Source: Spirochaetia bacterium
Lineage (GTDB): Bacteria; Spirochaetota; Spirochaetia; DSM-2461
Assembly: GCA_963668315.1 (NCBI GenBank)
Contig: OY764216.1
Location: 2,144,001 to 2,208,000 of the forward strand
Direction: 5' to 3'
DNA: 64,000 nucleotides
In this document: positions 10,801 to 54,502 of the stretch, in pieces
How positions within the stretch are numbered: the first letter of the stretch is position 1
Layout: each line of letters opens with the position of its first letter
Program-made: the position numbers and the translations under genes
The notes under the pieces: generated by a model
Database searches by the model: none
Told to the model about the DNA's origin: nothing
The model's input: the letters and a program-made list of their open reading frames with translations, nothing else

Positions 10801-11481
10801 TTATTCGTAGAAATATTCCGGAAGGGTTCTGACTCTTTCCAGAGCTTCCCTGCGGCTGGTGACTTCCAGCTTAGAATAAATCGTGCTGATGTAGTTCCTG
10901 ATCGTCTGATCTCCCACATGGATTTTGTCGGCTATTTCTCCGTTGGTGAGCTCGCTGAGCATATAGCGCAGAATCTGCTTTTCCCGGGGACTCAGCTCGC
11001 CGTACCAGAGGGGCATCTCCCGGCGGCTGCTGCGAAAAGCATCCTTTTCGTTATCGTAGACATGGTTTATAAGACTGCCGGCCACTTTGGGAGAAATAAG
11101 AATGGAGCCGGCCGCCACGGCCTTAATGCTGGATACCAGCATGGGGGGATCGATATTTTTAAGCATGTAGCCTTCCGCCCCGGCGGTCATGGCCTCTTTG
11201 ACGTAATCGTCGTCTTCGAAGGTCGTGAGCATGATAATCTTCACATGGGGTGATCTTTTCTTTATGGCGCGGACGGCGGCCACACCGTCCATGACGGGCA
11301 TGCGGACGTCCATGAGGATAATCTGGGGATCCATCGCTTCGTAATTTTTCAAGGCGTCATCTCCGTTCTCCGCGATTCCCACTACCTTGATATCCTCATT
11401 CTGGTTCTCCAGTACGATTCTAAGGCTTTCGAGGAAAAGACGCTGATCGTCCACCAGCATCAACCGGATTATTCCGTCCAT
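10801..11481 (-). CDS. NarL/LuxR-family DNA-binding response regulator
   Basis: Receiver (VDDQ, LMDVRMP, LTTF) plus LuxR HTH (LSPREKQIL, TNGEIA, TIRNYISTIYSKL). Confidence 0.93.
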   Translation of the reverse strand: MDGIIRLMLVDDQRLFLESLRIVLENQNEDIKVVGIAENGDDALKNYEAMDPQIILMDVRMPVMDGVAAVRAIKKRSPHVKIIMLTTFEDDDYVKEAMTAGAEGYMLKNIDPPMLVSSIKAVAAGSILISPKVAGSLINHVYDNEKDAFRSSRREMPLWYGELSPREKQILRYMLSELTNGEIADKIHVGDQTIRNYISTIYSKLEVTSRREALERVRTLPEYFYE

Positions 11482-12716
11482 AGGGCCTCCCCGTAATTTT
11501 CGGGCATGCGGGCCCGAATCATGAAGCCGCTCTTCAAATTCACCGCTTCCAGTTCACCGCCGACTTCGGCCAGCCTTTCGGACATGCCCGAGAGCCCCAC
11601 TCCCTCTACTATTTTCTCTGCGCCGCGCCCGTTGTCCTCTATGACGGTGAGCCAGCTATCTTTCTCTTTCCAGAAATGGATATCTATCTGAGTGGCCATC
11701 CCGTGGCGGAAGGCATTTGTCATTCCCTCCTGGATAATTCTGTAGAGCGCTTTGGTCTGCCGCGTGTCCAGGCCGTCGGGGAAATAGGTATAATCCACTC
11801 TGACTTCCACCGAAGAGAGCTGCTCGAAGGTCTCCGTCAATTTCTGAATCAGCCTTATGGGGGCTTCCCTTTCTATATGGGAAGAATGGAGACTCCTGAG
11901 GGTCGTCCTCGCTTCGGCTATTCCCTTTTCTATCTGCACTTTCGACTCCTTGAGGATCTCCTCGAGGCGGGCGTCATTCCTGTTTTCCATGGAAAGGACG
12001 GCCTGTACGATCATGAGCTGATTGGTCATGGTGTATCCCACGATGTCGTGAATCTCCCGGGATATGCGCCGGCGCTCCTTGTTTATTCCCTCCGATTCCA
12101 TTTGGACGGCATGGCTCTGGTAGTCCAGATTCACTTCGGTGAGCCGGTTTAGCGCCCTGTCCAGGCGGGTGAGGTCTTTTCTGTTCTGCTCCAGCTTGAG
12201 CGTCCTCTGCTTGAGCAGAACGGCCATGATGAGGATGGTGAACAGAAAAAGCCCCATAAGGAGCAGGGAATAGCGTCCGGGTGAGGCGACGGTGACGTCC
12301 CATGATTGATTTTCCCCCTGGGAGGAGAGAATGATAATCGATAGGAGAAGGGAGAGGAATATGCCCTCTCTGAAATCCAGGTAGAAGACGGCCTCTATGA
12401 TGATAAGGCCGGTAAGGTACATTTCCGGTGCGTAATAGCTGCCCAGGGGATAACCGAGCAGCAGGGTGGTTAAGAAACGCAGGAGTATGAGAACCAGGCT
12501 GGCCCGGCTGTTTTCCAGGAAGAATCCGGCGATGGAGCAGAGAAGGGAGAAGAGCAGTAAAGCGGTAAACTGATGGGACCAGTGGGCGGGTAGGAATAAT
12601 CCCTCCTCAAGGCTCCGGTAGTCCCAGTACAGGGCGACATGTATGGCCAAAGCCAGGATCAGGAGGAAAAGGGAGTATCCCTTATGAAATAGGTATTTTC
12701 GGCCGGCGGAAGTCAT
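11469..12716 (-). CDS. Membrane-bound sensor histidine kinase (HisKA_3, NarX-like)
   Basis: Several N-terminal TM helices; ERRRISREIHD H-box; QEGMTNAFRHG; EDNGRG; GLSGM.ER. Start at 12716 chosen from the upstream TGGTATAAT. Confidence 0.92.
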   Translation of the reverse strand: MTSAGRKYLFHKGYSLFLLILALAIHVALYWDYRSLEEGLFLPAHWSHQFTALLLFSLLCSIAGFFLENSRASLVLILLRFLTTLLLGYPLGSYYAPEMYLTGLIIIEAVFYLDFREGIFLSLLLSIIILSSQGENQSWDVTVASPGRYSLLLMGLFLFTILIMAVLLKQRTLKLEQNRKDLTRLDRALNRLTEVNLDYQSHAVQMESEGINKERRRISREIHDIVGYTMTNQLMIVQAVLSMENRNDARLEEILKESKVQIEKGIAEARTTLRSLHSSHIEREAPIRLIQKLTETFEQLSSVEVRVDYTYFPDGLDTRQTKALYRIIQEGMTNAFRHGMATQIDIHFWKEKDSWLTVIEDNGRGAEKIVEGVGLSGMSERLAEVGGELEAVNLKSGFMIRARMPENYGEALWTE

Positions 12717-12781
12717 CGTAGGAGGATTATACCATAAAATCCTGCCGGAGCCGATCCTTATTGCCATGTCCTGCGGTTCTG

Positions 12782-21597: not shown

Positions 21598-22224
21598 TCA
21601 GCTTAATACCTTCTTGACGCCGGCAAAAACGTCATCCGGGGCCTGCCCGGCGTCTACGTCCTTGATCAGTCCCTTTTCGGTATAATAGCTGATAAGGGGC
21701 TCGGTGGAATCGGCATAGACCTTGAGTCTGTTCTTGATGGATTCGATTTTGTCGTCATCCCGGGTATAGAGCTCGCCGCCGCACTTGTCGCACTTTCCCT
21801 CAACCTTCGGGGGAATGAACTCCACGTGATAACCGGCCCCGCACTCCTTGCACAGGCGGCGTCCGGAGAGACGTCTGACCACTTCCTCTTCGGCGACAGT
21901 AAAGTTGATGACCACATCCACCTGGCTGAAACCGGCCAGAGCATCGGCCTGTCCCGTGGTGCGGGGAAATCCGTCGAGGATATAGCCGTTAGCCGTATCG
22001 CCCTGTGCCAGTCTCTCTTCGACAAGAGCCACGGTCAGTTCGTCGGGAACAAGATCGCCCCGGTCGATAATGGCCTTTACCTTAACGCCCAGTTCGGTCT
22101 GATTCTTGATGGCCGCCCGGAAAAGGTCTCCCGTGGAAATATGGGGAATCCCCAGATCCTCTTTGATTCTAACAGCCATCGTTCCTTTTCCGGCTCCCGG
22201 AGGGCCCAAAAGTATCATTTTCAT
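21598..22224 (-). CDS. adk: Adenylate kinase (zinc-lid type)
   Basis: GPPGAGKGT, HISTGD, LDGFPRT, lid CKEC...CDKC, RDDD. Confidence 0.97.
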   Translation of the reverse strand: MKMILLGPPGAGKGTMAVRIKEDLGIPHISTGDLFRAAIKNQTELGVKVKAIIDRGDLVPDELTVALVEERLAQGDTANGYILDGFPRTTGQADALAGFSQVDVVINFTVAEEEVVRRLSGRRLCKECGAGYHVEFIPPKVEGKCDKCGGELYTRDDDKIESIKNRLKVYADSTEPLISYYTEKGLIKDVDAGQAPDDVFAGVKKVLS

Positions 22225-22448
22225 AATGTCACCTCTATCGTTTTATCTCCCCGCTCCACCTTGCAACACTCCTCGGAACACCAGTCGCCCCATTCCCACT
22301 TCGGACCTTTCTTAAAGTACTTCCGGCAGACGGGACAGCGGGTGAATTCGGCCATGCACTCTTCGGAGCAGAAATGCTCTCCCAAAGCGTCCCGGCCGGG
22401 AAAATGTCTTCCGCAGGTATAGCATCGGATATATTTCACGTCATTCAC
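22221..22448 (-). CDS. Small protein with two tandem CxxC...CSEEC zinc-binding repeats (TRASH/treble-clef-like)
   Basis: RCYTCGRHF...FCSEEC and RCPVCRKYF...WCSEEC; ATGA overlap with adk; promoter directly upstream. Confidence 0.8.
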   Translation of the reverse strand: MNDVKYIRCYTCGRHFPGRDALGEHFCSEECMAEFTRCPVCRKYFKKGPKWEWGDWCSEECCKVERGDKTIEVTL

Positions 22449-22454
22449 CCGTTC

Positions 22455-22483
22455 ATATTAAGGAAAAAGGGGATTCCGGTCAA
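22455..22483 (-). promoter_or_regulatory. sigma70 promoter for the Zn-protein-adk-ppaC-pdxK-HD-GYP operon
   Basis: TTGACC-N17-TAATAT on the minus strand; GTG start 6 nt downstream. Confidence 0.65.
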
Positions 22484-22493
22484 TCAGAACGTG

Positions 22494-24515
22494 CTAATCT
22501 CTCAGTTTTGAGACCAGGCCGGAAATCAGAATGAGAAACCCCGCTCCGATGAAGGAGAGGGACAGGATGATCCGCCGGAGAAAAAGGGGATAACGGCTGA
22601 AAGGAGCGGTTATCAGTCCCCTGTAGCTTTTTCCCTGCCGGGAGGAGTACTGGGAGTAGTCGATCTCCGATTCCAGATAGTATTTTCCGTTCAGGGTTTC
22701 GATTCCCCCTCTGCCCCGGATTATCGTTTCCCTCACATTCTCCTCCAGAGGCAGCTGAATCTGGATTTCCCTGTACGGCCCCTGCGGCTCATCCGCGTCC
22801 AGGGGACCGTGGAAGTAGAAACCTACGAGGACCGGGTAGGGGGGGATCCCGCCGGTATCATCGAGCTCCCTGCCTCCGTATAGGCAGATATTTTCGGCTT
22901 CCCGGATCAGCTCGGTTTTATACCTCACGATCAGCCAGGAGATGAAGGTGTTCAGGTATTTTCCCCCATGGATGGAATCGCGGGTGAAACTGTCCGGTTC
23001 CACCGCTCCGATGGGAGTGTCCTTCCGGGAAAGAAACGTGATGAGAGCCTCTGGATCGGTGCAGACCATGGGGGGGAGATCCATTCGGTATAGTTTTCTG
23101 TTGTCCGTAGTCCTCAGTATACCCTCTTCCAGTATTCCTATGCTCTCCCCGGGGGCTATTGTCTTTTTGGCATCCTCATCTATCAGGAAAAGGGGGGACC
23201 CGTCCCGGAAGCAGACCGTCCTGCTGAGTATTCCGGTCAGTTCCTGCCAGGACTCAAAAAGCGCCCTGAGTCTCTCCTCATCCCTTTCGGAAAACAGATC
23301 ATAAAGTTGCCCTGAATCGGCCAGGGGCAGGTAATCCGAAGAATAGGGTGTCAGGCGATGGACGGTAAGGTCGTGAAACTCCACTGTCTCGCCCCCTCGC
23401 AGGGGAAGAGTCTCTCCGGCATTTTCTATGAGAAGGGGGCCTTCCTGAATGTTGCGCGGGAGGGCGGTGAGGACGTCCCCGTTCTTGTCCCCCATGACGG
23501 AGAAGAAGTGAATGATGCCCAGGAGAAGAAGAAGGGAGCCGCAGAGGAGCCAGGGGAGGGGCCGCTTAATCAGTTTTGCGCCCAGTCTTTCATCCAGAGA
23601 CCAGGGACCTAAACTGACAAGACGTCCGGCTCTTTTTCCTCCCTTGAGATAAAGTTCCATCCGTCCCGAATAGCCGGAACCGGAGAACAGGGGGAGAGTC
23701 CTGCGGGGAATCCGGAAAAGATCTTCCGTCCCCTTAAGGCGGCAGAAGGGTGAAAGTTTTCCCCTCTTTTCTATCCGTTCCAGTGTTCCGGTGACGGTGC
23801 ATATCTCTTTTCTCCCTTTCGGGTACCGGGGAGGAAGAACCAGGGGCAGAAGGGATAGAGCCCCCAGGAACAGTCCCGCTGCCAGAAAGAGAACAGAGCC
23901 GCGGAGTCCCTCCTCGGAGGCGGTATAGACGGCTATGGTCAGGGAGAGAAGCGCGGGGAGGGCGAGCAGCAATATTTCCTGGAAAAGAGGGCGAAGAAGG
24001 GCGCGGCTTTCCCGTTTTGCCCCATCCCGGAAAGAGCAGGAGGCGTAGGGCGGCAGGATATTGTCCCTCCTCTCCCTGCCGAAGCGGTCGGAGATGGTGT
24101 AGCTGTTGATCTTCAGGGGATAGGCTTTCATTCTTCTGTCCCCGGGGAGAATGGCATATTCGCAGAGGGCATAGCGGTCCTCCTTATGGAATAATTTCTC
24201 CATTTCCCCCTTGCGGAACTGAATCTGTATGCCCCCGATCCAGAACTCATTGTAGGTGCCGTACCTGTTCTTCATGGTAATCCACTCAAAAACCCCCTCT
24301 GTCCTGTAGACCTCGGCATCCGCCGGAAGGGGAATTCCGAAATAACGCCTTGCTCCGGCTGTTTCTTCCGGGGTGATGACTCTCTGGGGAATCAATTGGG
24401 AGCGGATGATTTTCTCCCGTTTTTTAAGAAAGCGTCTGGTCCGGTAGTAACGGAAGCAGATCACCGTAGTATAAAGAAGCATGAATCCATAGAGAATCAG
24501 TGTGATAATCAGCAT
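22494..24515 (-). CDS. Five-TM inner-membrane protein, IgaA/UmoB-like (paralogue 2)
   Basis: TM1-cyto-TM2-TM3-cyto-TM4-large loop-TM5 layout; motif similarity to IgaA recalled from memory; clear paralogue of the neighbouring gene. The CDS itself is well supported; the family call is tentative. Confidence 0.6.
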   Translation of the reverse strand: MLIITLILYGFMLLYTTVICFRYYRTRRFLKKREKIIRSQLIPQRVITPEETAGARRYFGIPLPADAEVYRTEGVFEWITMKNRYGTYNEFWIGGIQIQFRKGEMEKLFHKEDRYALCEYAILPGDRRMKAYPLKINSYTISDRFGRERRDNILPPYASCSFRDGAKRESRALLRPLFQEILLLALPALLSLTIAVYTASEEGLRGSVLFLAAGLFLGALSLLPLVLPPRYPKGRKEICTVTGTLERIEKRGKLSPFCRLKGTEDLFRIPRRTLPLFSGSGYSGRMELYLKGGKRAGRLVSLGPWSLDERLGAKLIKRPLPWLLCGSLLLLLGIIHFFSVMGDKNGDVLTALPRNIQEGPLLIENAGETLPLRGGETVEFHDLTVHRLTPYSSDYLPLADSGQLYDLFSERDEERLRALFESWQELTGILSRTVCFRDGSPLFLIDEDAKKTIAPGESIGILEEGILRTTDNRKLYRMDLPPMVCTDPEALITFLSRKDTPIGAVEPDSFTRDSIHGGKYLNTFISWLIVRYKTELIREAENICLYGGRELDDTGGIPPYPVLVGFYFHGPLDADEPQGPYREIQIQLPLEENVRETIIRGRGGIETLNGKYYLESEIDYSQYSSRQGKSYRGLITAPFSRYPLFLRRIILSLSFIGAGFLILISGLVSKLRD

Positions 24516-24522
24516 CTCTGCC

Positions 24523-26547
24523 TCAGTCCCTCAGCCGGGAGACAAGGCCGGACGCCAGTATCAGAAGCCCGGCGCACAGAAATCCCGCGGACAGGATAAT
24601 CCGCCTTAAAAAGAGGAGATAATAGGCATAGGGGGACATCCCTATCCTTCTGTAGCTGTCCTCTTCATACCAGTAGGGCTGGGAGTAATCGTAGGGGGAA
24701 TCCAGATAATAGACGCCGTTCAAGGTGAAAAGACCCCTTTCTCCGTAAAGCAGATTCTGCCTTATGATCTCTTCCATGGGGGTGGTAAGGAGATCTTTTC
24801 CCTGAAAATTCTGTTTTTCCCTCTCCGGAACGGTGTTAAGGTAAACGGACAGGTCGGAATAGCAGAAAAGAGGATAGGGGGAGGTTATCTCTGAAGAGTC
24901 GGTGCTGTCTTCCCGGAAATCCTTCCATAGAGAACCCGCCCTGTCCGCCAGTTCGGACTTGTAGCGCAGGACGATATTTATTATGTAGGGATTCAGCCCT
25001 TCCCCGCTGCGCACGGCTCTCTGAAGATAATGATCGTAGGGTATTCTTTCTATCAGGCCGCCCGGACTGGGGGTGTTGAGAAAATTCATGAAGCTTTCAT
25101 GGCGAATGCAAATCATGGGGGGAAGATCCACTGTGAACCTCTCATCATCATCGGTTGATTCAATGAGATCATCCTTATAGGGGCCTATGTCTGCGGGAGA
25201 GACCAGGGGCTGATTTCCGTTGAAAAGGAGGGCCCCGTTCCTGTACCTGACCGTTCTGTTAAGGTTGTCGACCATGTACTGCCAGATTTCAAGAAGTTCA
25301 TCAATTCTCTGCTTCTGTCCCTTCGTCAGGGTGTCGTAGAGAGAGTCGGGATCTTTCACGGGAAGATAATCATTGGAATAGGGGCTGTCGGGAATAAGGA
25401 GCATATTACGGAATTCCACCGTCTCGCCCCCCTTCAGGTTAAGGGTGTCCTCCGCCTTCTCAATAACAAGGGGGCCTTCGGAGATATTGCGGGGGAGGGA
25501 GGTCAGGACATTACGGTTTTTCCCCCCCGATGAGACCAGAAAGTGGACGCTTCCCGAAAGAAGCAGAAGAGTGCCGAGAATCAGCCAGGGGAGGGGGCGC
25601 TTAATCAGTTTTTTCCCGAGGTTCTCATCAAGAGACCAGGTCCCCAGACTGACCAGGCGGCCGGTTCTCTTTCCCCTGCCTCCCTTGAGGTAGAGTTCTC
25701 CCCGACCTGAAAAGCCGGTCGGAGGGAGCTGATCCAAAGCTCTGCGGGGCAGACGGAACCAGTCCTCTGTTCCCTTTAGTCTGCAGAAGCGTGTGAGGCG
25801 GCCCTTTTTTTCAATTCTCTCCCAGGTTCCGTAAACAGAACAAATCTCCCTTTTCTCCTCCCGCCGCCGGGGAGGAAGGAACAGGGGCAGAAGGGAGATC
25901 ATTCCCATGATGATGCCCGCGGCCAGGAAGACCGGAGCTTCCGTATACTCCTTATAAATTCCGTAGAGAGCCCCGGTCAGACTCAGAAGGGAGAAGGGGC
26001 AGAGGTAAATCCCGTTCCGCAGCAGGGTGGGCAGAAGTGCCCGGACTTCCCGCGGTGACCCGTCCCGGAAAGTGCATCCCCTGTAGGGGGGCGCCGGAGG
26101 GAAGCCCTTTTCCCGGCCGAAACGGTCGGATATCACTTTGTCGTTTATTCTCAGGGGATAGGCCCTGTGTCTTCTGTCTCCCGGGAGCAGGGCGAACTCG
26201 CAGAGGGCGTCGTCCGCACTGAAGAGATCCTCCATCTCAGCCTTTCTGTACTGTATCTGTATGCCCCCGATCCAGAATTCCTTATATGTGCCGTTCCGGT
26301 TTGTAACGGAAATCCACTCAACAGGACCTTCCAGCCGATATACGCCGCCATCGGGGGGGAGGGGTATCCCGAACATGCGTCTGACACCGGCCGTCTCTTC
26401 CGGGCTAATTTTCCTCAGGGGTGACAGATGCTCCCGGAGGAGGCTTTCCCTTTTCCTGAAGCGGGACTTTGCGCGGTAATAGCTGACACTGAGGCTTATG
26501 GTAAAGATGAGCGTGAATATGTAAAGGATGATTGTAAATATGTACAC
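24523..26547 (-). CDS. Five-TM inner-membrane protein, IgaA/UmoB-like (paralogue 1)
   Basis: Same topology; RKISPEETAGV, YPLRIND, LFLPP...REICSVYGT, ELYL...SLDE and LKGGETVEF blocks. Family call is tentative. Confidence 0.6.
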   Translation of the reverse strand: MYIFTIILYIFTLIFTISLSVSYYRAKSRFRKRESLLREHLSPLRKISPEETAGVRRMFGIPLPPDGGVYRLEGPVEWISVTNRNGTYKEFWIGGIQIQYRKAEMEDLFSADDALCEFALLPGDRRHRAYPLRINDKVISDRFGREKGFPPAPPYRGCTFRDGSPREVRALLPTLLRNGIYLCPFSLLSLTGALYGIYKEYTEAPVFLAAGIIMGMISLLPLFLPPRRREEKREICSVYGTWERIEKKGRLTRFCRLKGTEDWFRLPRRALDQLPPTGFSGRGELYLKGGRGKRTGRLVSLGTWSLDENLGKKLIKRPLPWLILGTLLLLSGSVHFLVSSGGKNRNVLTSLPRNISEGPLVIEKAEDTLNLKGGETVEFRNMLLIPDSPYSNDYLPVKDPDSLYDTLTKGQKQRIDELLEIWQYMVDNLNRTVRYRNGALLFNGNQPLVSPADIGPYKDDLIESTDDDERFTVDLPPMICIRHESFMNFLNTPSPGGLIERIPYDHYLQRAVRSGEGLNPYIINIVLRYKSELADRAGSLWKDFREDSTDSSEITSPYPLFCYSDLSVYLNTVPEREKQNFQGKDLLTTPMEEIIRQNLLYGERGLFTLNGVYYLDSPYDYSQPYWYEEDSYRRIGMSPYAYYLLFLRRIILSAGFLCAGLLILASGLVSRLRD

Positions 26548-26652
26548 TTTGGAAATATACCTCGGTTTATCGGGAAATCCCGTTGAATTTTACCTCCCGA
26601 ATGAATAATGGGGCGGTCTGCAGTATAATGAAAATAACTGAGGTTGAAAATC

Positions 26653-27477
26653 ATGATTGAGAAAATCAAGGGCATGGATATTTATTACGAAGTATGCGGG
26701 GAAGGGAGGCCCATTCTTTTTCTGCACGGGTTTCCCGTAGACCATGTGTGTATGAAAGGGTGCATGGAACCGCTTTTCTCCCGGAGGGAAGGGTATAAGA
26801 GGATCTATCTAGATCTTCCCGGAATGGGAAAATCCGGTTCTTCCGGCGAGATAAGGAACGCCGATGATATGATTGACGTTGTTCACCGCCTGCTGAATTT
26901 TCTGGTTCCCGGACAGTCCTGCCTTGTGGGCGGTTACTCCTATGGGGGATATCTGGCCAGAGGACTGGTGTATAAATATTCAAGCGAGATCGATGGGATG
27001 CTCTTGATCTGTCCCGTGGCTGTTCCCGATAAAAGACTCAGAACCCTGCCTGAACCCGTTGTACTGGAGAGGGATGCCTCCTTCACCGGAACCCTGAGCC
27101 CCTCCGAAGCCCGGGAGTTTGACGGCATGGCCGTTATTCAGAATGAGAGAATCTACCGCCGCTGCGGGGAGGAAATTACCCTGGCCCTGCAAAGGGCCGA
27201 CAGGGAATTTGTCAGCCGGTACCTGCGGGAGGGCTACTCCTTCACCTTTCCCGTGGATGGGGCCGGCACGCAGGAGGGCCGATCCTATGACAAGCCTGTT
27301 CTTTTCCTCATGGGACGTCAGGACTCGGTTGTCGGATATAAGGATACCTGGCCTCTGCTGGATAACTATCCCCGGGCTTCCTTTGTCCTCCTGGACCGGG
27401 CGGGACATAATCTGCAGATCGAACAGGAGGAAATGCTGGCAATTCATGTAAATGACTGGCTAAATCGTATTAAATGA
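26653..27477 (+). CDS. Alpha/beta fold hydrolase
   Basis: LFLHGF, DLPGMGKS, nucleophile elbow GYSYGG, GRQD, AGHN. Confidence 0.9.
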   Translation: MIEKIKGMDIYYEVCGEGRPILFLHGFPVDHVCMKGCMEPLFSRREGYKRIYLDLPGMGKSGSSGEIRNADDMIDVVHRLLNFLVPGQSCLVGGYSYGGYLARGLVYKYSSEIDGMLLICPVAVPDKRLRTLPEPVVLERDASFTGTLSPSEAREFDGMAVIQNERIYRRCGEEITLALQRADREFVSRYLREGYSFTFPVDGAGTQEGRSYDKPVLFLMGRQDSVVGYKDTWPLLDNYPRASFVLLDRAGHNLQIEQEEMLAIHVNDWLNRIK

Positions 27478-46809: not shown

Positions 46810-48021
46810 ATGGAATTACTATCTCCCGCGGGCAGTATAGAAAAGCTGAAATATGCCTGGCTGTACGGTGCCGATGCGGCTTATATCGGACTACAGGGCT
46901 TTTCCCTCAGGGCCAAGGCGGACAATTTCGCCAATGAAGCGGACCATGCAGAGGAAGAAGCGGAATATATCAAATCGATAAAGGGACAGAATAAACTTTA
47001 CTGCGCTCTGAATATCTATTTTCATAATAAAGATCTCGCCCGTCTGGAAAGAAATCTCGCCGCCTTCGAAGCCTATCCTTTCGACGCGTTTATCATAAGC
47101 GACATAGGCCTGCTTCCCCTCCTCAAGAGACGATTTCCCCATACGGAACTCCATCTTAGTACTCAGGCAAACGCCACGAACGGAGAGGCGGTCAAAATGT
47201 ACGGGGACATGGGATTTTCCCGGGTTGTTCTGGGAAGGGAAGTCTCCCTGGCCGAGATCGAATCGATCAAGAAAGCCGCGCCCCATATCGAACTGGAGGC
47301 TTTTGTTCACGGCGCCATGTGCCTGGCCTATTCGGGCCGCTGCTTCCTAAGCGCCTGGATGACCGGCCGCTCGGGTAATGACGGAACCTGCGCCCACTCC
47401 TGCCGCTGGGACTACCGCGTCCTGGAAGAGGAGAAGCGCCCCGGCCAGTACTATCCCGTCATAGAGAACGAAGGCTTCACCACCATTCTCTCCTCCAAGG
47501 ATATCTGCATGATAGATCATCTTAAGGAGATGAAGGAGACAGGGGTCGACTCCCTGAAGATAGAGGGACGGATGAAGTCCATCTATTACACCGCCGTGGT
47601 TACCCGGGCCTACCGGAAAGCTTTGGACAGGCTGGCGGGAAAGAATGTCCCCGACTACGAGGGATACCGGGAGGAACTGAACAAGGTCAGCCACCGGGAA
47701 TTTTCCACCGGCTTCTATTTCAGTAAGCATGACGTGGAAAAATCCACCGAGATCTCCTACCAGAGGCAGTACACCTTCATGGGCTCCCTGGGAAAGGAGA
47801 TCGCCCCCGGTCAGTTTGAACTGGATATCAAAAATAAGATCCTCCGCTCCGACGAACTGGAGTTCATCGGTCCCGACGAGCTCTACCTCTCCGACAGGAA
47901 CTGGAAAATCCTGGAGCCCTCCGGAGAAGAGCCGGAAGAGGCGGATCATGGAAAATCCTATACCATCATCCCCGGGATAAAAGCTCAGGAAGGGTACATC
48001 ATCAGAAAGAAAAAGGACTGA
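46810..48021 (+). CDS. trhP: U32-family protein, TrhP/YegQ-like tRNA 5-hydroxyuridine modification enzyme
   Basis: MELLSPAG, GADA.Y.G, HLSTQAN, E.FVHGAMC.AYSGRC, C.HSCR, SLKIEGRMKS. Confidence 0.8.
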   Translation: MELLSPAGSIEKLKYAWLYGADAAYIGLQGFSLRAKADNFANEADHAEEEAEYIKSIKGQNKLYCALNIYFHNKDLARLERNLAAFEAYPFDAFIISDIGLLPLLKRRFPHTELHLSTQANATNGEAVKMYGDMGFSRVVLGREVSLAEIESIKKAAPHIELEAFVHGAMCLAYSGRCFLSAWMTGRSGNDGTCAHSCRWDYRVLEEEKRPGQYYPVIENEGFTTILSSKDICMIDHLKEMKETGVDSLKIEGRMKSIYYTAVVTRAYRKALDRLAGKNVPDYEGYREELNKVSHREFSTGFYFSKHDVEKSTEISYQRQYTFMGSLGKEIAPGQFELDIKNKILRSDELEFIGPDELYLSDRNWKILEPSGEEPEEADHGKSYTIIPGIKAQEGYIIRKKKD

Positions 48022-48026
48022 TTTTC

Positions 48027-49205
48027 ATGGACTTCAGCATCATATTTGTCATCATTCTCCTGGGAGGATGGATTTTCGGCCGCATCTTCGGCAAAATCGG
48101 TCTGCCATCCATTTTCGGAATGGTCGTTTTCGGGATCATCTGTTCCCTGACCCTGACGGATAAAGCACCGGACTTGCTGTGGGATATGGCGCCCTATCTC
48201 AAATCCTTCGCTCTTATAGTCATACTTTTGCGAGCCGGTCTGGGACTGAACAAGGACGCCCTCAAAAAAAACGGTCGTGTCGCCGTATTGCTGGCTTTCC
48301 TTCCCTGCCTCGTGGAGGGAGCGGCCCTTACCCTGGCCATAAGGTTCGTATTCGGCTTTGATCTTTTCACCGCCGGTCTGACCGGCTATATGTTGGCCGC
48401 CGTTTCCCCCGCCGTTATTGTGCCGTCCATGCTCGATTTGAAGGAGAAGGGGATAGGCCGGGAGAAGGACGTCCCCACCATCATTCTGGCCGGCGCTTCG
48501 GTGGACGATGTGATCGCCATAACCCTGTTTACCGTTTTTCTGGATCTGGCCCTTTCCGGGCAGGCCGATATACTGCGTTCCGTCCTCTCCGTTCCCCTCT
48601 CCCTCGTTCTGGGCATAGCCGCGGGAGGGGTGGCGGGATTTCTGCTGCTCCGTTTTTTCCGTCGCTTTCACGAGAGCATCAGAGCCACGGAGAAAACCCT
48701 GGTCCTGATTATGGCGGGCACCCTTCTGGTCGATCTGGGGGACAGCGCCCATTTCGCCGCACTGATAGGCCTTATGACCATAGGTTTCATTCTTCTTGAA
48801 CGATCCGAAGTCATCGCCCATGAACTGGCGGGGAAACTCTCTAAAATCTGGGTCTTCGCCGAGATCGTTCTATTTGTTCTGATCGGATTCTCCCTGGATG
48901 TACACGTCGCTCTGGCAGGAGGACTCAAGGCTCTGGCCGTTCTGGCTATCGGGCTCTTTTTCCGTTCCCTCGCCGTTCTGGCCTCCACTTCCTTTTCGAC
49001 GCTTTCCTGGCGGGAGCGTCTTTTCTGCGTAATCGCCTACCTTCCCAAAGCTACCGTGCAGGCGGCCCTGGGAGGAGTAGCCCTGAGCCGGGGAATTCCC
49101 GAAGGGGACACCATTCTGGCCCTGGCCGTCCTGGCAATCATTGTCACCACACCCATAGGGCTGATCGGTATACGGGTATTCGGCAAACCTCTTCTGGACA
49201 GCTGA
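48027..49205 (+). CDS. Cation:proton antiporter (Na+/H+ exchanger family)
   Basis: Many TM helices; ILLRAGL, AAVSPAVIVP, SVDDV, YLPKATVQAALG. Confidence 0.9.
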   Translation: MDFSIIFVIILLGGWIFGRIFGKIGLPSIFGMVVFGIICSLTLTDKAPDLLWDMAPYLKSFALIVILLRAGLGLNKDALKKNGRVAVLLAFLPCLVEGAALTLAIRFVFGFDLFTAGLTGYMLAAVSPAVIVPSMLDLKEKGIGREKDVPTIILAGASVDDVIAITLFTVFLDLALSGQADILRSVLSVPLSLVLGIAAGGVAGFLLLRFFRRFHESIRATEKTLVLIMAGTLLVDLGDSAHFAALIGLMTIGFILLERSEVIAHELAGKLSKIWVFAEIVLFVLIGFSLDVHVALAGGLKALAVLAIGLFFRSLAVLASTSFSTLSWRERLFCVIAYLPKATVQAALGGVALSRGIPEGDTILALAVLAIIVTTPIGLIGIRVFGKPLLDS

Positions 49206-49208
49206 TAA

Positions 49209-49237
49209 GGGAAAGGGAAAGCGGAAAGCGGAAAGCG
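49209..49237. repeat. Short purine-rich tandem repeat at the left edge of the AT-rich island
   Basis: GGGAAA GGGAAA GCGGAAA GCGGAAA GCG. Confidence 0.5.
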
Positions 49238-49390
49238 TTATATTGAAAACGGTATAATACCCCTTTTCACAGTGAGATAGCTTAAGGCATAAATGAAGTG
49301 TTGTGATATAAAACGTATTTGTTATTGGTGGCTTACTCCGGGAGTCGCAAAGGAATACGTCTTTTCCGAGAATGGGGAATACAGATAAGA

Positions 49391-49663
49391 ATGAAAATAG
49401 ATAAGAATGAGATCCTGGAGAAGATATGTTATACCGATCTCGTTTATGATCGGATAAATAAAAAATTAAACATATCACTCTCAAAAATTGAGAGTGAAAG
49501 ATTTATTCTGAGAATACTGCAAGAGACTCAAGATGATAATTATAAGATGATAGGAAAGAATTTTTATGTTAATAATTTCACTGAAAATATCAGGATAACC
49601 ATTAATAGAAATACTTTCAGAATCATTACAGCAGATATAATCGATAAAAATAAAATAAAATGA
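49391..49663 (+). CDS. DUF3781-like small protein
   Basis: ICYTDLVY.RINKKL...GKNFYV...ITIN..TFRIITA pattern; ATG at 49391; AT-rich codon usage. Confidence 0.72.
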   Translation: MKIDKNEILEKICYTDLVYDRINKKLNISLSKIESERFILRILQETQDDNYKMIGKNFYVNNFTENIRITINRNTFRIITADIIDKNKIK

Positions 49664-49800
49664 TGTTCAGGAAGGTCAAGGAAATCCTCGTGATTTATTC
49701 TTTTCAGGAAATGATGTCTATGAAAAACTTTCTATCAATGAGAACATTCCAAGTAGGTTATGGTGAGCAATTTGAAATATTATGAGGAACTATAAGGAAA

Positions 49801-50367
49801 TTGTTCAAATATTATATAATCATTTTTTTAGTATCATTTTCAGAACTTGTTTCCTCTCAGGAAGATAATAACAGGGATATATCGGCCGTTAAGCTAAATG
49901 ATTTTTCAATTGAATATTTAAAGAACGAGAATCCAGATAATATCGTTGAATTATGTATAAATACAGAGACATTATCCTCCCTTGAAAAAGATATCTATTA
50001 TCAAGAATTGGATAATTACATCATTGCCCATGCAGACATAGATAACGATAGATTTGAGTTAATTAAAATGTCATTAATTGATATTCTTTATTTAATGAAA
50101 GCGTGTGAAGAGTATGGCACCTTTTTCCAGCATATGGAACATCGATTAGGAGCATATTCAATATGGCTTACATATACAAAAAAAACAAACGGACAGGATT
50201 TAACTTTAAAAAGAATAATTGATAATATTATTAATGATATTTCTGATAATAAAGATATTGAAATTGCAAAAGAACAATATAAGCAATGTATTGATGATTT
50301 TGCACGAATAGACGATCAAACCATAACTGCCAATATAATATGGTTTTATGAAAATTATATGAAATGA
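49801..50367 (+). CDS. Hypothetical exported acidic protein (AT-rich)
   Basis: 188 open codons in AT-rich DNA; TTG after AAGGA; N-terminal hydrophobic signal-like segment. Confidence 0.7.
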   Translation: MFKYYIIIFLVSFSELVSSQEDNNRDISAVKLNDFSIEYLKNENPDNIVELCINTETLSSLEKDIYYQELDNYIIAHADIDNDRFELIKMSLIDILYLMKACEEYGTFFQHMEHRLGAYSIWLTYTKKTNGQDLTLKRIIDNIINDISDNKDIEIAKEQYKQCIDDFARIDDQTITANIIWFYENYMK

Positions 50368-50464
50368 AAAATGCAGTAGAAGAACAGGCTTCCAGGAAAT
50401 GGTCCATGCCACTTCGGAACTGGAAGCCTGATATGAATAGAGTAGCCATCCATATGAGGGCCTG

Positions 50465-51765
50465 GATAAAGCAACCCTTTTGTCTGTAAAATTAGAAAAA
50501 GTTAATCAGTCTCCATATTCAAATATCTTTTACCTGTAAACCACTGCTCATCTATTTCCATTAACAGAGCCGCGATCAGACGATCAACGGACTTCCTATT
50601 TGGAAATATCATGGCTACCCTTGTTCGCCTCTTTATTTCTTTCATCTGCCGCTCTGCCAAATTTGAAGTTCTTAGCCGTCGCCAATGAGCCTTTGGCATT
50701 GAGAAGACGGTAAGGGACTCGGGGATATTCTCATCCATCCAGCTACTCAGATCGGGCGCCGTTTCCTCATATTTTTTAACAGCCATTGAAAGAAAGCGTT
50801 TCGCTTCTTCTCCATTGGGTGCGTTAAAAATAGTTCTGATGTCTTCTGCTACCTCCTTCTCCATGCTCTTCTTGGGAACGTGATGAGAAGCATTCTGCTG
50901 GAGATGAAACTGACAGCGATGCCAGGGAACCGTAGGAAAAACAGCCTCTATTGCAGATTTTAGACCACTATGGGCATCTGAAGTTATCATTCTGACTCCA
51001 TGTAAACCTCGGTCAACCAATCCAGCGAGGAACTTTCTCCAATGAACATCAGCCTCGCTGAGTTCTGTTGAAATCCCAAGAACCCTTCTCATTCCCTTAT
51101 TATCAACTCCATAAGCAATTAGAACGGCTGCCGAAACGACAGCTCTATCCACACGAGCTTTTTCATAGGTCGCATCCACAATGAGATAGCGAAAAGCTCC
51201 CAGAGGGCGATTCCGCCACTTAGAAATCTCTTCATCCAGCAGTGCGGTTGCTTCAGAAACCTGGGATTGGGAAACTTCGAAGCCGCAGAGCTGTTCTACA
51301 ATTTTGGTTACTCTGCGAGTTGATACCCCCTGGATATACATCTGAGCTATTGCCATTTTCAACGCCCTTTCGCTGCGGCACCCTTTTTCAATGCTGCCAG
51401 GATAGAATTCCATCCCACGGACCTGCGGAATCTCGATAGGGATCTCACCTACACGAGTTCGAATCTTCCTGCTTTTGTACCCGTTTCTATGGCCAATGCG
51501 ATCGTCATTCCGTTCATAATGACTGGCTTGGATTGCCTTCTCTTGCTCTAACCGCATAGATAAATTCATTATTGAACTTATGACCTTTGTTAATCCTTCT
51601 CGATTATCTGCCTGGAGCTCTTCAATCATTTGATCGAAAACGGTATAGTAATCCTCGTTAGTCATGATGCCTTCTTTTGTTTTTGGTCGAACTAATCGAA
51701 GACTGATTGGCTAACTTTTTCAAGCCCCCTTTATTTCTAATTTACAGACACTATTGTACACTATC
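50465..51765 (-). mobile_element. Complete IS256-family insertion sequence (1301 bp)
   Basis: Imperfect TIRs GATAAAGCAACCCTTTTGTCTGTAAAATTAGAAA and (reverse complement) GATAGTGTACAATAGTGTCTGTAAATTAGAAA; perfect 8-bp TSD AGGGCCTG at 50457-50464 and 51766-51773. Confidence 0.95.
50502..51665 (-). CDS. IS256-family (Mutator-type) DDE transposase
   Basis: RNGY, MY.QGVSTR, LIVDA, ITSDAH.GL, RCQFH, RTSN..ER; uninterrupted frame. Confidence 0.96.
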   Translation of the reverse strand: MTNEDYYTVFDQMIEELQADNREGLTKVISSIMNLSMRLEQEKAIQASHYERNDDRIGHRNGYKSRKIRTRVGEIPIEIPQVRGMEFYPGSIEKGCRSERALKMAIAQMYIQGVSTRRVTKIVEQLCGFEVSQSQVSEATALLDEEISKWRNRPLGAFRYLIVDATYEKARVDRAVVSAAVLIAYGVDNKGMRRVLGISTELSEADVHWRKFLAGLVDRGLHGVRMITSDAHSGLKSAIEAVFPTVPWHRCQFHLQQNASHHVPKKSMEKEVAEDIRTIFNAPNGEEAKRFLSMAVKKYEETAPDLSSWMDENIPESLTVFSMPKAHWRRLRTSNLAERQMKEIKRRTRVAMIFPNRKSVDRLIAALLMEIDEQWFTGKRYLNMETD

Positions 51766-51786
51766 AGGGCCTGCCTTCATCCTTCT

Positions 51787-52833
51787 TTACGCAGGCGTGA
51801 TTGTGCCGTCCACATCCCAGAGCGCCTCCCAGCTCTGACCATCCTTCCAGAGAAAAACATCACCCTTGATAAGGCGGCAGTTCCTGTCTATTCCGGCGAT
51901 ATCGGCCATCTCCTTATCGGTCAGTTTTTCTCCCAGAACGCATTTGAGATTGCTCAGATAATTTCTTTTTTTCACAGAGAAGGGAATGGGTATCTGTCCC
52001 CGCTGATAGGCCCATTTCAGACAGACCACGGCAGGATGGACACCCAGTCTCTCGGCGCAGGCTTTGATCACCGGATCTTCCGTATCTACCGTATCGCTCT
52101 CCGTCCTGTCCCTCTCCGGTCTGTCGGGTGACCCGATGGGGGAATATCCCACGGGCTGAATGCCTTTGGACTGGATATAGCTGAAAAGTTCGGGCTGCTG
52201 GAAATGGGGATGGAGCTCCATTTCAATGACCGCCGGTTTGATCCGGCAGTCCCTGAGGACAAGTTCCATTTTGGGGATGGTCATATTGGATACGCCGATA
52301 TTCCTGACCAGACCCATATCCATGAGTTTTTCCATGGCCTGCCAGGTTTTCATATAGTTTTCATGTATGTAAGGTTTGGCGTCGGGGCTCCGGGAGGATA
52401 CATCGCATCCCGGGGGATGGTAGTTGGGGAAGGGCCAGTGGACCAGATAGAGATCCAGGTAACTCAGCTGAAGATCTTCCAGAGATTTCCGGCAGGAGGC
52501 GATCACATCATCGGGAGCATGCATATCGTTCCAGACTTTGCTGGTGATGAAGAGCTCTTCCCTTTTTACCTTTCCCGAGGCAAGGGCTTTGGCAAATGCC
52601 TTGCCTATCTGCTTTTCATTACCGTATACCGAGGCGCAGTCAAAATGGCGATAGCCCAGCTCCATGGCATTGAAAACGGCATCGGCTACTTCTTCGGCTG
52701 TGACATGGTCGGATCCGAAGGTTCCCATTCCAATAACAGGCATTTTCGATCCTGAGTAGAGAGTTTTATAGGGAAAGACAGAAGGGTCGACTCCTTCCGG
52801 ATCCACGATGAAGTCTCTGGTTTCAAAATCCAT
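51787..52833 (-). CDS. Aldo/keto reductase
   Basis: MP.IGMGTF, GYRHFDCASVYGNE, REELFITSKVW, LDLYLVHWP, IGVSN, GYSPIG. Confidence 0.94.
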   Translation of the reverse strand: MDFETRDFIVDPEGVDPSVFPYKTLYSGSKMPVIGMGTFGSDHVTAEEVADAVFNAMELGYRHFDCASVYGNEKQIGKAFAKALASGKVKREELFITSKVWNDMHAPDDVIASCRKSLEDLQLSYLDLYLVHWPFPNYHPPGCDVSSRSPDAKPYIHENYMKTWQAMEKLMDMGLVRNIGVSNMTIPKMELVLRDCRIKPAVIEMELHPHFQQPELFSYIQSKGIQPVGYSPIGSPDRPERDRTESDTVDTEDPVIKACAERLGVHPAVVCLKWAYQRGQIPIPFSVKKRNYLSNLKCVLGEKLTDKEMADIAGIDRNCRLIKGDVFLWKDGQSWEALWDVDGTITPA

Positions 52834-53041
52834 TGATTAATCTCCTTTCCGCTGGGCGGAATCTTCTATAAGTGCTATAGTGTACTAGAACAGTATAGAG
52901 TAAAAAATCCCGTTTGACAAGGGAAAAAAGCATTCGGACAAGTATGGGGGAATTTTCTGTTGCGAAATCCCCCTTCCCGTACATAATTAAAGCAGGGACA
53001 TACATCACAAAAGGGTTCCATCCCACAGTCAGAAGGAAATT

Positions 53042-53680
53042 ATGAAAAACGACGGATCATTGGAAGATTTAAAAAAGACTAACGCCATTCTTTCCGGGAT
53101 AATAGAAAGTCCCAGGAATGTGATCATTTTTGCCCTTGATACGGGATACCGCTATATTGCCTACAACAGTAATCATAGAAAAACTATGAAGGCTATCTGG
53201 GGTGCGGAGATTGAAAAGGGAGAAAATATACTCGATTATATAAGCTCCGAAGAGGACAGACAGAAAGCCCGCATGAATTTTGACAAGATCCTTATGGGAA
53301 AGTCTTTTACCCTGGAAGAACAGTACGGGGACACGGCCCATGAGAGGAGGTATTACGAAGATATCTACAATCCGATTATCGACGATAAGGGCGATATTAT
53401 CGGATTAACCGTTTTTCTGACCGATATTACAGAGCGGAAGACGATGGAGCACGAGCGCAACAAGCTGATAACTGAACTGCAGAACGCCCTGGATAACGTC
53501 AAGATGCTCACGGGACTTCTCCCCGTGTGTTCCCATTGCAAGAAAATCCGTACCGAAAACGAAGACTGGCAGCCTATCGAGCACTATATCAGGGAGCATT
53601 CAGAAGCCCAGTTCTCCCATAGCCTCTGCCCGGAATGCGTAAGTAAGCTCTATCCCGATTTAATCGATGACAGTAAATAA
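53042..53680 (+). CDS. PAS-domain protein with a C-terminal Cys/His putative zinc-binding domain
   Basis: PAS/PAC ending in DITERK, coiled coil, then LLPVCSHCKKIR...W..IE.YI..HS...FSHSLCPEC. Confidence 0.85.
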   Translation: MKNDGSLEDLKKTNAILSGIIESPRNVIIFALDTGYRYIAYNSNHRKTMKAIWGAEIEKGENILDYISSEEDRQKARMNFDKILMGKSFTLEEQYGDTAHERRYYEDIYNPIIDDKGDIIGLTVFLTDITERKTMEHERNKLITELQNALDNVKMLTGLLPVCSHCKKIRTENEDWQPIEHYIREHSEAQFSHSLCPECVSKLYPDLIDDSK

Positions 53681-53722
53681 CAGGGATGAACAAATAACCT
53701 TCCTGTGCTATGATGGGCGGCG

Positions 53723-54502
53723 ATGTCCCGGGAAGAAAAAGAGCAGATTATCATACTAAAAACCTATGCCGTCGGAGAGAATCACCGGGGGGTCAGGCTT
53801 CTGACTCCGGGAAACGGCGTTCTCTCGGCATTGGTATACGGGGGCAACGGAAAGAACAGCGGCCGCAAGGGCGCGGTGATTCCCTTCTGCTACGGCTGGG
53901 GGGATCTGGTTCATGACAGAAGCCGGGGGAGATATCAGCTGAAGGAATTTTCCGTTGAAGCTCCCTTTGAGGCGGTGCGGGAAGATTTGAGAAAGACCTA
54001 TATCGCCAGTCTCTGGTCAGAAGTGATCATGGGCTCCTACGGCGGGGGGCATCAGGGCCCCGAGCTGTTCCTCCTTCTCCTGGAAGCCCTCCACTCCCTG
54101 GCCGAGGCGGGAGACAGGGACCGGGCCCGTAATGAAGGGTATATATATAACCGGGATTCCCGCATTCTGGTGCGGTTCCTCTGGTCCTATCTTGCGTTGA
54201 GCGGTGAACGGCCGGATATACGCCGATGCGCCCATTGCGGAGCGGGGACAGAGAAAGGGCTGTACCGTGATTCCCGGGGGCGTATCTTCTGTGCCTCCTG
54301 CGCCCATCCCGGTTCGGGTAAGCTTCCTCCCGGAATTGTTCCCTATCTTGACAGGGCGGACAGTTCAGGATGGGACGAATTCCTGAAAATCGGCATAGCC
54401 GGACAGACTATGGAACAGTTAAAAAGATGGCTTTTCGCGGTCATTCAGGATCATATGGAGTATCCCCTGAAAACCCTGAAAACGGGTGCTTTTCTTTTAT
54501 AA
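53723..54502 (+). CDS. recO: DNA repair protein RecO
   Basis: N-terminal OB fold (GE.HR...LLT...G.L.A..YG), helical core, Zn finger CAHC...CASC. Confidence 0.85.
   Translation: MSREEKEQIIILKTYAVGENHRGVRLLTPGNGVLSALVYGGNGKNSGRKGAVIPFCYGWGDLVHDRSRGRYQLKEFSVEAPFEAVREDLRKTYIASLWSEVIMGSYGGGHQGPELFLLLLEALHSLAEAGDRDRARNEGYIYNRDSRILVRFLWSYLALSGERPDIRRCAHCGAGTEKGLYRDSRGRIFCASCAHPGSGKLPPGIVPYLDRADSSGWDEFLKIGIAGQTMEQLKRWLFAVIQDHMEYPLKTLKTGAFLL

Follow-up and report, generated by a model that had tools for sequence, protein, structure and literature searches.

The two adjacent ORFs described here, found in a 64,000-nucleotide stretch of a Spirochaetia genome (the window), raise the question of whether proteins of the IgaA type exist outside the Enterobacterales and, if so, what they might regulate. 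IgaA/YrfF/UmoB/GumB (PF07095) represses the enterobacterial RcsF-IgaA-RcsCDB system and is an essential protein of both E. coli and Salmonella; the literature cited here presents it as unique and Rcs-dedicated. To our knowledge, IgaA has been studied as an envelope-stress brake only in gut-type bacteria.

The coordinates bear out the two co-oriented ORFs of 674 and 673 aa, 7 nt apart, that an initial annotation had reported (Table 1). The encoded proteins, A and B, are 49% identical over their full length. A single Logan contig spans the whole stretch with zero differences and is possibly the window's own source. Hydropathy analysis (19-residue window, cut-off 1.6) identified five segments in B (2-20, 181-199, 208-226, 323-341, and 649-667) and four in A, in which TM2 falls below the cut-off yet appears as a helix (175-198) in the structure model; E. 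coli IgaA likewise yields only four segments at this cut-off. The Lys/Arg flanks are consistent with an N-out TM1, two cytoplasmic loops, and a large outer loop. The five-TM plan proposed initially, with two cytoplasmic regions and one large periplasmic domain, thus holds by hydropathy, charge, and model helices.

Table 1. Features of the locus, in window positions; protein parts in residues. SBB, small beta-barrel.
Feature	Position	Strand	Remarks
adk, adenylate kinase	21598..22224	-	left housekeeping flank, synteny anchor
Promoter-like site	22455..22483	-	TTGACC-17-TAATAT, of the downstream Cys-rich ORF/adk unit; conserved in congener G003
IgaA-like protein B	22494..24515	-	tandem paralogue of A; ATG start
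IgaA-like protein A	24523..26547	-	GTG start
A, N-terminal part			TM1; SBB-1 (about 37-141); connector with R161/E167; TM2-TM3 hairpin
A, remainder			SBB-2 (about 231-318; G240, E284); TM4; periplasmic domain (341-648); TM5; tail of about 5 residues
Promoter-like site	26622..26650	-	TTTTCA-17-TATACT, upstream of A, back to back with the hydrolase gene
Alpha/beta hydrolase	26644..27477	+	right flank

Relatives and predicted folds together support the identification of both proteins as remote homologues of IgaA/UmoB. The family profile aligns with E. coli IgaA at a probability of 98% (hhalign; E 2e-13, 320 columns, residues 43-384 onto 41-401) and scores 53.7 bits on that protein, as compared with at most 3.8 bits for 173 scored local shuffles; taken by itself, the window's lineage reaches only 9.1 bits (5.8 for shuffles). 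A profile of 67 four-cysteine members, which were found with the query family and aligned beside it, a caveat on their bit scores, gives 45.9 bits for A and 41.4 for B (shuffles at most 7.1 and 10.0, respectively). The ESM Atlas returned a score of 0.96, with IgaA accounting for 23 of 30 matches. Identity to E. coli IgaA amounts to 11/99 residues in SBB-1 and 17/72 in SBB-2. The sequence blocks initially matched to Salmonella IgaA are all in register in the profile alignment, for which the reference is E. coli IgaA (window/E. coli: RKISPEE/RKLTPEE, YPLRIN/LVISLN, REICSVYGT/REIHCLRGT, ELYL/DIYL, and GGETVEF/VGDTLRI).

The homology first proposed therefore stands through relatives, profile, and folds, but not through a direct match to PF07095 or by direct BLAST. 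Neither A (queried without its first codon) nor B gave a PF07095 row at E up to 1; against the Pfam cut-off of 25 bits, a third, separately derived IgaA-like copy, encoded elsewhere in the genome from the tandem pair, scores 17 bits, and a relative (L016) 25.7 bits. BLASTP to E. coli IgaA gave a best E of 0.18, and no direct match was identified in NCBIfam or, by sequence and by profile, in the PDB. Word-based homologue searches recovered only 2 proteins, and an Atlas search excluding PF07095 clusters returned no usable match.

Structural comparison with IgaA by Foldseek, proposed at the outset as a check, places the solved cytoplasmic and periplasmic domains of IgaA at the top. For the full model, the cytoplasmic domain 4UZM ranks first (E 0.016); this match covers the predicted SBB-1 (residues 37-141) and in VIA has Z 7.4 and rmsd 3.3 over 95 residues. 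SBB-2 appears to be a hybrid barrel, as strand 159-162 of the model aligns together with 231-303 in several OB-fold matches. CorA and other helical matches topping the VIA ranking of the full model were set aside as generic helix bundles. For the periplasmic-domain model (pLDDT 85), Foldseek ranks 1-4 are IgaA periplasmic chains (9BIZ/9BIY/9BJ0; E 0.025-0.87), and 9BIY ranks first of 48,161 in VIA, matching end to end (Z 6.6, rmsd 7.3, 217 residues); the periplasmic fold comparison scores in the middle range (TM about 0.3, Z below 8). The modelled periplasmic domain fits the IgaA type (SBB-3 plus a helical crest), with the path predicted to be kept and the crest remodelled.

Conservation across 122 proteins is highest in the barrel cores. 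E194 is present in all 122, R188 in 117, G262 in 116, and Asp or Glu at 309 in 108; the equivalents are R161/E167/G240/E284 in A and R163/E169/G243/E287 in B, with D309 as Glu. Mutations of R188 and G262 damage IgaA function, and R188-E194-D309 form a modelled triad; because these residues are modelled as structural, serving barrel folding (PMC10248123), their retention speaks to fold rather than to signalling. Of the periplasmic cysteines C404, C425, C498, and C504, A and B hold Cys only in the C498 column. After E. coli position 676, 5 residues are found here as compared with 36 in E. coli, and an equivalent of R686 (R673) is present. The crest (472-540), where RcsF and RcsD bind in IgaA, gives no reliable alignment to the window proteins; the unreliably aligned contact columns (L472, I476, M481, L483, R506, N513, and N536-R540) contain Ile at M481 and otherwise gaps or different residues. 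As far as can be judged from sequence and models, then, the window proteins share with IgaA the five-TM plan, SBB-1, the hybrid SBB-2, the R188/E194/acidic 309 set, G262, the R686 equivalent, the periplasmic path, and a gene apart from any kinase, whereas the Rcs-binding crest, the four cysteines, and most of the C-terminal tail do not appear to be kept; their genome further differs in holding three copies and no RcsF or RcsD.

The initial annotation was correct in its reading of the host as a spirochaete and in finding no Rcs gene in the window, and the absence of RcsF, RcsD, and the RcsC-specific domain extends to the whole genome (one contig, 97% complete). At the level of the window this absence is uninformative, because E. 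coli igaA is itself distant from rcsDBC and rcsF. RcsF had no BLAST match in the genome, and the best PF16358 match (E 0.2), a 109-aa ORF without a signal peptide that we take to be YbjQ-like, was rejected. RcsD 1-461 and RcsC 1-340 had no match at E up to 1 beyond generic kinase and receiver domains, and no ABL family exceeded its cut-off in the genome; a weak RcsD-ABL match was rejected as a kinase without TM segments. Among the family genomes, RcsF and RcsD-ABL were each found in 0/38. Candidate kinases in the genome comprise 73 kinase-core ORFs, 22 of them with a large membrane-flanked loop. As neither RcsF nor RcsD was found, the proteins likely regulate a different signalling protein.

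We therefore consider it plausible, at slightly less than even confidence, that A and B are envelope sensors whose target, a non-Rcs membrane signalling protein and probably a histidine kinase, is encoded elsewhere and kept in check by their binding. If they work as IgaA does, each copy would have its own envelope cue or lipoprotein to read through the crest; the cytoplasmic barrels and membrane helices would relay it to a partner common to the copies, which would stay repressed until then. RcsF and RcsD bind IgaA at the crest, and much of the repression comes from the first cytoplasmic domain (bioRxiv 10.64898/2026.05.08.723598; PMC5978795). The homology, domain order, core residues, missing Rcs partners, three copies, and split in conservation between barrels and crest are shown in favor of such a sensor; against it stand a patchy presence, unlike that of an essential repressor, and the lack of any neighbor, across 53 loci, that points to a partner. 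The IgaA-fold sensor initially proposed is thus upheld in its fold, by profile and Foldseek, while its sensor function is something we continue to infer. CpxP/NlpE, YycH/YycI, and LiaF, accessory regulators of two-component systems, resemble the window proteins in proposed logic, that of an envelope protein holding a kinase off until stress; most regulators of these types are encoded beside their kinase, whereas the window genes are not.

The conservation split is evident between A and B, which match at 71/105 residues in SBB-1, 61/86 in SBB-2, and 57/189 in the crest; that is, the cytoplasmic barrels are 68-71% identical (dN 0.23-0.27) and the crest 30% (dN 0.71). Overall dN is 0.45 as compared with a dS of about 1.3, which shows long purifying selection between the two; as dN/dS is below 0.4 in all parts, positive selection is not shown. 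It is common for outer domains to diverge more quickly than inner ones while their ligand stays unchanged. The conserved barrel cores would also suit a non-signalling envelope scaffold with a polymer or protein complex as the ligand of its three OB-like barrels, namely wall material on the outer side and protein or nucleic acid on the inner; repression of Rcs would then be a later enterobacterial addition. We regard this as unlikely, though with an appreciable chance of being correct: all three barrels are OB-related, general OB proteins occupy the lower fold ranks, and no kinase neighbor recurs. Spirochaetes and Cellulophaga have stand-alone TM+SBB-1 proteins of 160-200 aa with no periplasmic domain, which shows that use of the module need not involve sensing; a family form in G011 lacks SBB-1. 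However, the ligand is only putative, the five-TM plan spanning both membrane sides is kept whole in most full-length members and suits transmembrane coupling, and the presence of several divergent copies in one genome suits varied inputs.

Members of the family are patchily distributed, in 10/37 other family genomes and 16/401 genomes of the class. PF07095 gave no match above cut-off in 301 phylum genomes (one match at E 0.006 was taken as chance); a match in G558 (E 7e-4) was treated as spurious, and one in G389 (E 2e-4) aligns with the short form. A metagenome scan for the window lineage returned 27 pattern matches, none of them a relative. A single clade of spirochaete copies is rejected (p-AU 5e-7): the window lineage has a Vibrio protein beside it, groups with the gammaproteobacterial part of the tree (100/98) and separately from the main lineage of spirochaetes, and is absent from 3/3 congeners with the query used. 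This placement and absence would fit horizontally gained leftovers with no working partner in their host, a reading we consider very improbable given that both frames are intact, that the substitution rates above indicate constraint, and that an 89% identical intact homologue and full-length relatives exist in two other family genomes. The GC content of the pair, 54-55% as compared with 51% genome-wide, likewise counts against it.

The pair occupies a slot between adk and the hydrolase gene that is empty in one congener: in G003, the hydrolase homologue and the adk upstream region are immediate back-to-back neighbors, and no IgaA-like genes separate them. Likeness of G003 to the window ends just upstream of the left promoter-like site, which marks the left edge of the IgaA-like cassette. 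The site upstream of A is a candidate only, since a scan for similar sites found 3 against 2.7 expected. The variable slot, the patchy distribution, the mixed phylogeny, and the multiple copies per locus also seen in L098, L100, and L104 are compatible with an accessory resistance or exclusion protein, of which each copy would stop a particular toxin, antimicrobial peptide, or phage at the inner membrane by trapping or blocking it; such a role would account for the patchy presence, for exchange among marine lineages, and for the rapid change of the outer crest. It is nonetheless improbable in our estimation: PADLOC matched 0/6 proteins, no plasmid matched L016, no viral contig matched the Alcanivorax-type alignment, and flanking genes in the loci inspected are mostly metabolic or transport. 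Over 53 loci (17 from spirochaetes and 36 others), no neighbor recurred between lineages; clustering, with families judged from sequence starts rather than Pfam, recovered only lineage-local synteny or generic families. Such an absence fits IgaA itself, whose gene is distant from rcs and whose action is in trans.

That IgaA-like proteins extend beyond the Enterobacterales, as the initial annotation proposed, is upheld by homology but is not unseen, as databases already name such proteins in Alcanivorax, Alkalilimnicola, Arhodomonas, Psychromonas, and Eleftheria. "IgaA/UmoB family intracellular growth attenuator" proteins of non-enteric Pseudomonadota, including Alloalcanivorax, belong to the same family and are matched by the spirochaete profile; 33/68 scanned hits pass PF07095. 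Like the window family, they have no conserved neighbors and sometimes several copies; most keep the four cysteines and pass Pfam, whereas the window proteins do neither. These database-named homologues carry names only, no functional study of them was found, and, short of subscription papers and bioRxiv supplements, nothing was found on non-enteric or spirochaete IgaA homologues.

These data tentatively suggest, in a reading we hold at distinctly less than even confidence, that IgaA, rather than having arisen with Rcs, belongs as a single branch to a widespread family of envelope sensors with five TM segments and three barrels. This family, for the most part unannotated, is present in spirochaetes and non-enteric Pseudomonadota and as TM+barrel fragments in Bacteroidota. 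Its conserved barrels would plug into non-Rcs partners while periplasmic inputs were swapped, and the Enterobacterales would have co-opted one copy. If so, the three spirochaete copies would expose the ancestral function and partner of IgaA. These homologues bear on what the cytoplasmic barrels of IgaA bind and on where IgaA came from: their barrels are kept where RcsF and RcsD are missing, so they must work with something else, and they offer a direct route to the ancestral activity and to separating fold from Rcs-contact residues. They further suggest that free-living spirochaetes and marine bacteria have an envelope-sensing route not yet described and overlooked by current annotation.

The two IgaA-like ORFs of the window (A and B) lie 7 nt apart and share 49% identity over their length; the ORF coordinates bear out the co-oriented tandem of the initial annotation. 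Its five-TM plan is supported by hydropathy for B, with five segments; hydropathy yields four in A, and TM2 of A, absent from these segments, is supplied by the structure model, in which it forms a helix. The basic flanks of the segments are those expected of a protein with two loops in the cytoplasm and a single large one outside.

The proposed likeness to IgaA (PF07095), inner-membrane repressor of the enterobacterial RcsF-IgaA-RcsCDB phosphorelay, fails in direct tests but holds in profile comparison. Neither A nor B matched PF07095 in a direct Pfam search, and BLASTP of the window proteins against E. coli IgaA gave a best E of only 0.18. However, E. coli IgaA matched a 15-sequence family profile with a probability of 98% (E 2e-13; residues 43-384 on 41-401), and this profile scores 53.7 bits on E. 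coli IgaA, as compared with at most 3.8 for local shuffles (173 of 200 scored). A profile from the window lineage alone counts against the match, reaching just 9.1 bits versus 5.8 for shuffles. A third copy in the same genome matches PF07095 at E 0.0017, and one relative (L016) exceeds the PF07095 cut-off at 25.7 bits. The ESM Atlas yields IgaA clusters at 0.96 (23/30 hits), a score weakened by a recognition value (1752) under the level of known families. Only three columns of the 15-sequence alignment are invariant, R161, E167, and G240, corresponding to IgaA R188, E194, and G262; the position of IgaA D309 is E284 here. In IgaA, R188H and G262R impair function, and E194, R188, and D309 form a modelled triad (PMC10248123). 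A and B are almost certainly remote homologs of IgaA.

Structural comparison identified two IgaA domains as leading matches. The top Foldseek match of the full model (pLDDT 64) is 4UZM, the IgaA cytoplasmic domain (E 0.016; in VIA, Z 7.4, rmsd 3.3, model residues 37-141 on 36-154). For the periplasmic domain, modelled alone from a 70-row alignment (pLDDT 85, pTM 0.80), IgaA periplasmic chains occupy Foldseek ranks 1-4 (E 0.025-0.87, TM about 0.3), and one ranks first of 48,161 in VIA, where the match runs end to end over 217 residues (Z 6.6, rmsd 7.3). Each score alone is not strong; the evidence is that two separate IgaA domains each come out on top, and in the right order. The IgaA periplasmic PDB entries date from 2024, later than the AlphaFold2 training set.

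When A was searched against 61 related genomes, 7 others proved to contain relatives, and the third copy was also recovered. The family profile was positive in 10/37 other family genomes and 16/401 class genomes (two of the 16 weak; only two candidates scored per genome). Among 1.84 billion representatives, 226 proteins were recovered at E up to 0.001; 33 of 68 scanned hits exceeded the PF07095 cut-off, only 2 of them above 800 bits. Among the 30 hits looked up for names, members in Alcanivorax, Alloalcanivorax, Alkalilimnicola, Arhodomonas, and Psychromonas are already IgaA/UmoB in databases, and those in Vibrio, Pseudoalteromonas, Litoribrevibacter, and Oceanospirillaceae are without named function. 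Eleftheria also has one member. In N-terminal-half trees (midpoint root only), enterobacterial IgaA is one long branch amid non-enteric members. The window pair groups with G012, one G030 copy, and a Vibrio protein (support 100/100) on the gammaproteobacterial side. This lineage is separate from the main spirochaete lineage, which includes the third copy, nearer to PF07095. Monophyly of the 14 spirochaete rows is rejected (p-AU 5e-7); long branches are a caveat, and two rows carry the gammaproteobacterial label from Pfam scores only.

Stand-alone proteins of 160-200 aa, with a TM segment and the first cytoplasmic small beta-barrel (SBB-1), also occur in spirochaetes and Cellulophaga (192 aa); no Pfam family was found in the 4 scanned, and they may represent a new small family using the first IgaA barrel alone. 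Conversely, a 530-aa member in G011 is without SBB-1, but its connector, SBB-2, and periplasmic domain are present.

Coordinates of IgaA-like genes and other features (window positions unless a locus or genome is named)
Feature	Position	Strand	Remarks
IgaA-like ORF A	24523-26547	-	GTG start, 674 aa
IgaA-like ORF B	22494-24515	-	ATG start, 673 aa
Cys-rich ORF, 72 aa, unlisted	22221-22439	-	stop overlaps adk start; several CxxC/CSEEC motifs
NarL/LuxR-type response regulator + membrane kinase	10801-12767	-	downstream of sugar ABC operon
Third IgaA-like copy	G000:C1 about 1706726-1708819 = L013:7727-9820	-	adjoined by unrelated genes
Stand-alone TM+SBB-1 proteins	L019:6289-6843, L061:6386-6952, L062:5388-5870		P0056 + about a dozen more 150-200 aa hits
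G011 member	L059:5937-7526
G001 slot gene	L066:1-1113		upstream of adk
Possible island	48000-54000

That no rcs genes lie nearby, as first remarked, is not evidence by itself, because E. coli igaA is also far from them. In the window's own genome (one contig, 97% complete), nothing exceeded the cut-off for RcsF, RcsD-ABL, or RcsC-ABL, and BLAST of RcsD 1-461, RcsC 1-340, and mature RcsF gave none at E up to 1, matches being limited to generic kinase, receiver, and NarL-type domains. Neither RcsF nor RcsD-ABL turned up in any of the family genomes (0/38); the E. coli positive control was detected.

The slot between adk and an alpha/beta hydrolase gene, occupied by A and B, is variable: in one congener (G003) the adk upstream region stands back to back with the hydrolase and the cassette is missing, and in another (G001) a different gene takes its place. 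The G001 gene product has a signal peptide, closed by a lipobox-like Cys, together with a linker rich in Ser and Asp. Across 53 loci, neighbors recur only among close kin or as generic families, so no partner emerges from gene order; additional multi-copy loci are L098, L100, and L104. The NarL/LuxR-type regulator (25% to RcsB, generic) and the membrane kinase lie about 10 kb from A/B, with no sign of a link. In three close relatives (L016, L053, L054), the IgaA-like gene is divergent from or just after 2-3 similar small paralogous genes, which we take to be AIM24-like; this synteny is local only. The 72-aa Cys-rich ORF is zinc-finger-like, its DNA conserved in G003 with the frame apparently kept. 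GC falls to 42-49% in the possible island, versus about 53% elsewhere in the window.

As compared with enterobacterial IgaA, in a set of 122 proteins of at least 590 aa (shorter hits left out), A and B keep the barrel-core residues and an equivalent of R686. However, they hold only one of the four periplasmic cysteine positions, their tail past TM5 is about 5 residues versus 36 in E. coli IgaA, and the divergent periplasmic crest (IgaA 472-540) does not align with them. In IgaA this crest binds RcsF and RcsD and is where input enters (bioRxiv 10.64898/2026.05.08.723598). Our literature search, confined to non-subscription papers, brought up no work on IgaA beyond Enterobacterales. Such occurrence is less surprising because databases already name homologs in non-enteric Pseudomonadota; new here are members in spirochaetes, variants of the Cys-less and tail-less kind, and the demonstrated lack of RcsF and RcsD.

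Between A and B, identity is 68-71% in the barrels, with dN 0.23-0.27, and 30% in the crest, where dN is 0.71. The dS is above 1 and purifying selection acts throughout; it is very improbable that the genes are idle leftovers. Much of IgaA repression is carried by the first cytoplasmic domain (PMC5978795). The simplest extension, which we consider plausible at somewhat less than an even chance, is that the copies are envelope sensors acting in trans, with differing inputs and a common non-Rcs target. A barrel scaffold without signalling role appears unlikely, and resistance or exclusion proteins more so. The candidate pool comprises 73 kinase-core ORFs in the genome, 22 of them membrane kinases with large loops. 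As such sensors, the separate copies would take different envelope inputs through their crests, and would reach in trans a non-Rcs target common to them all.
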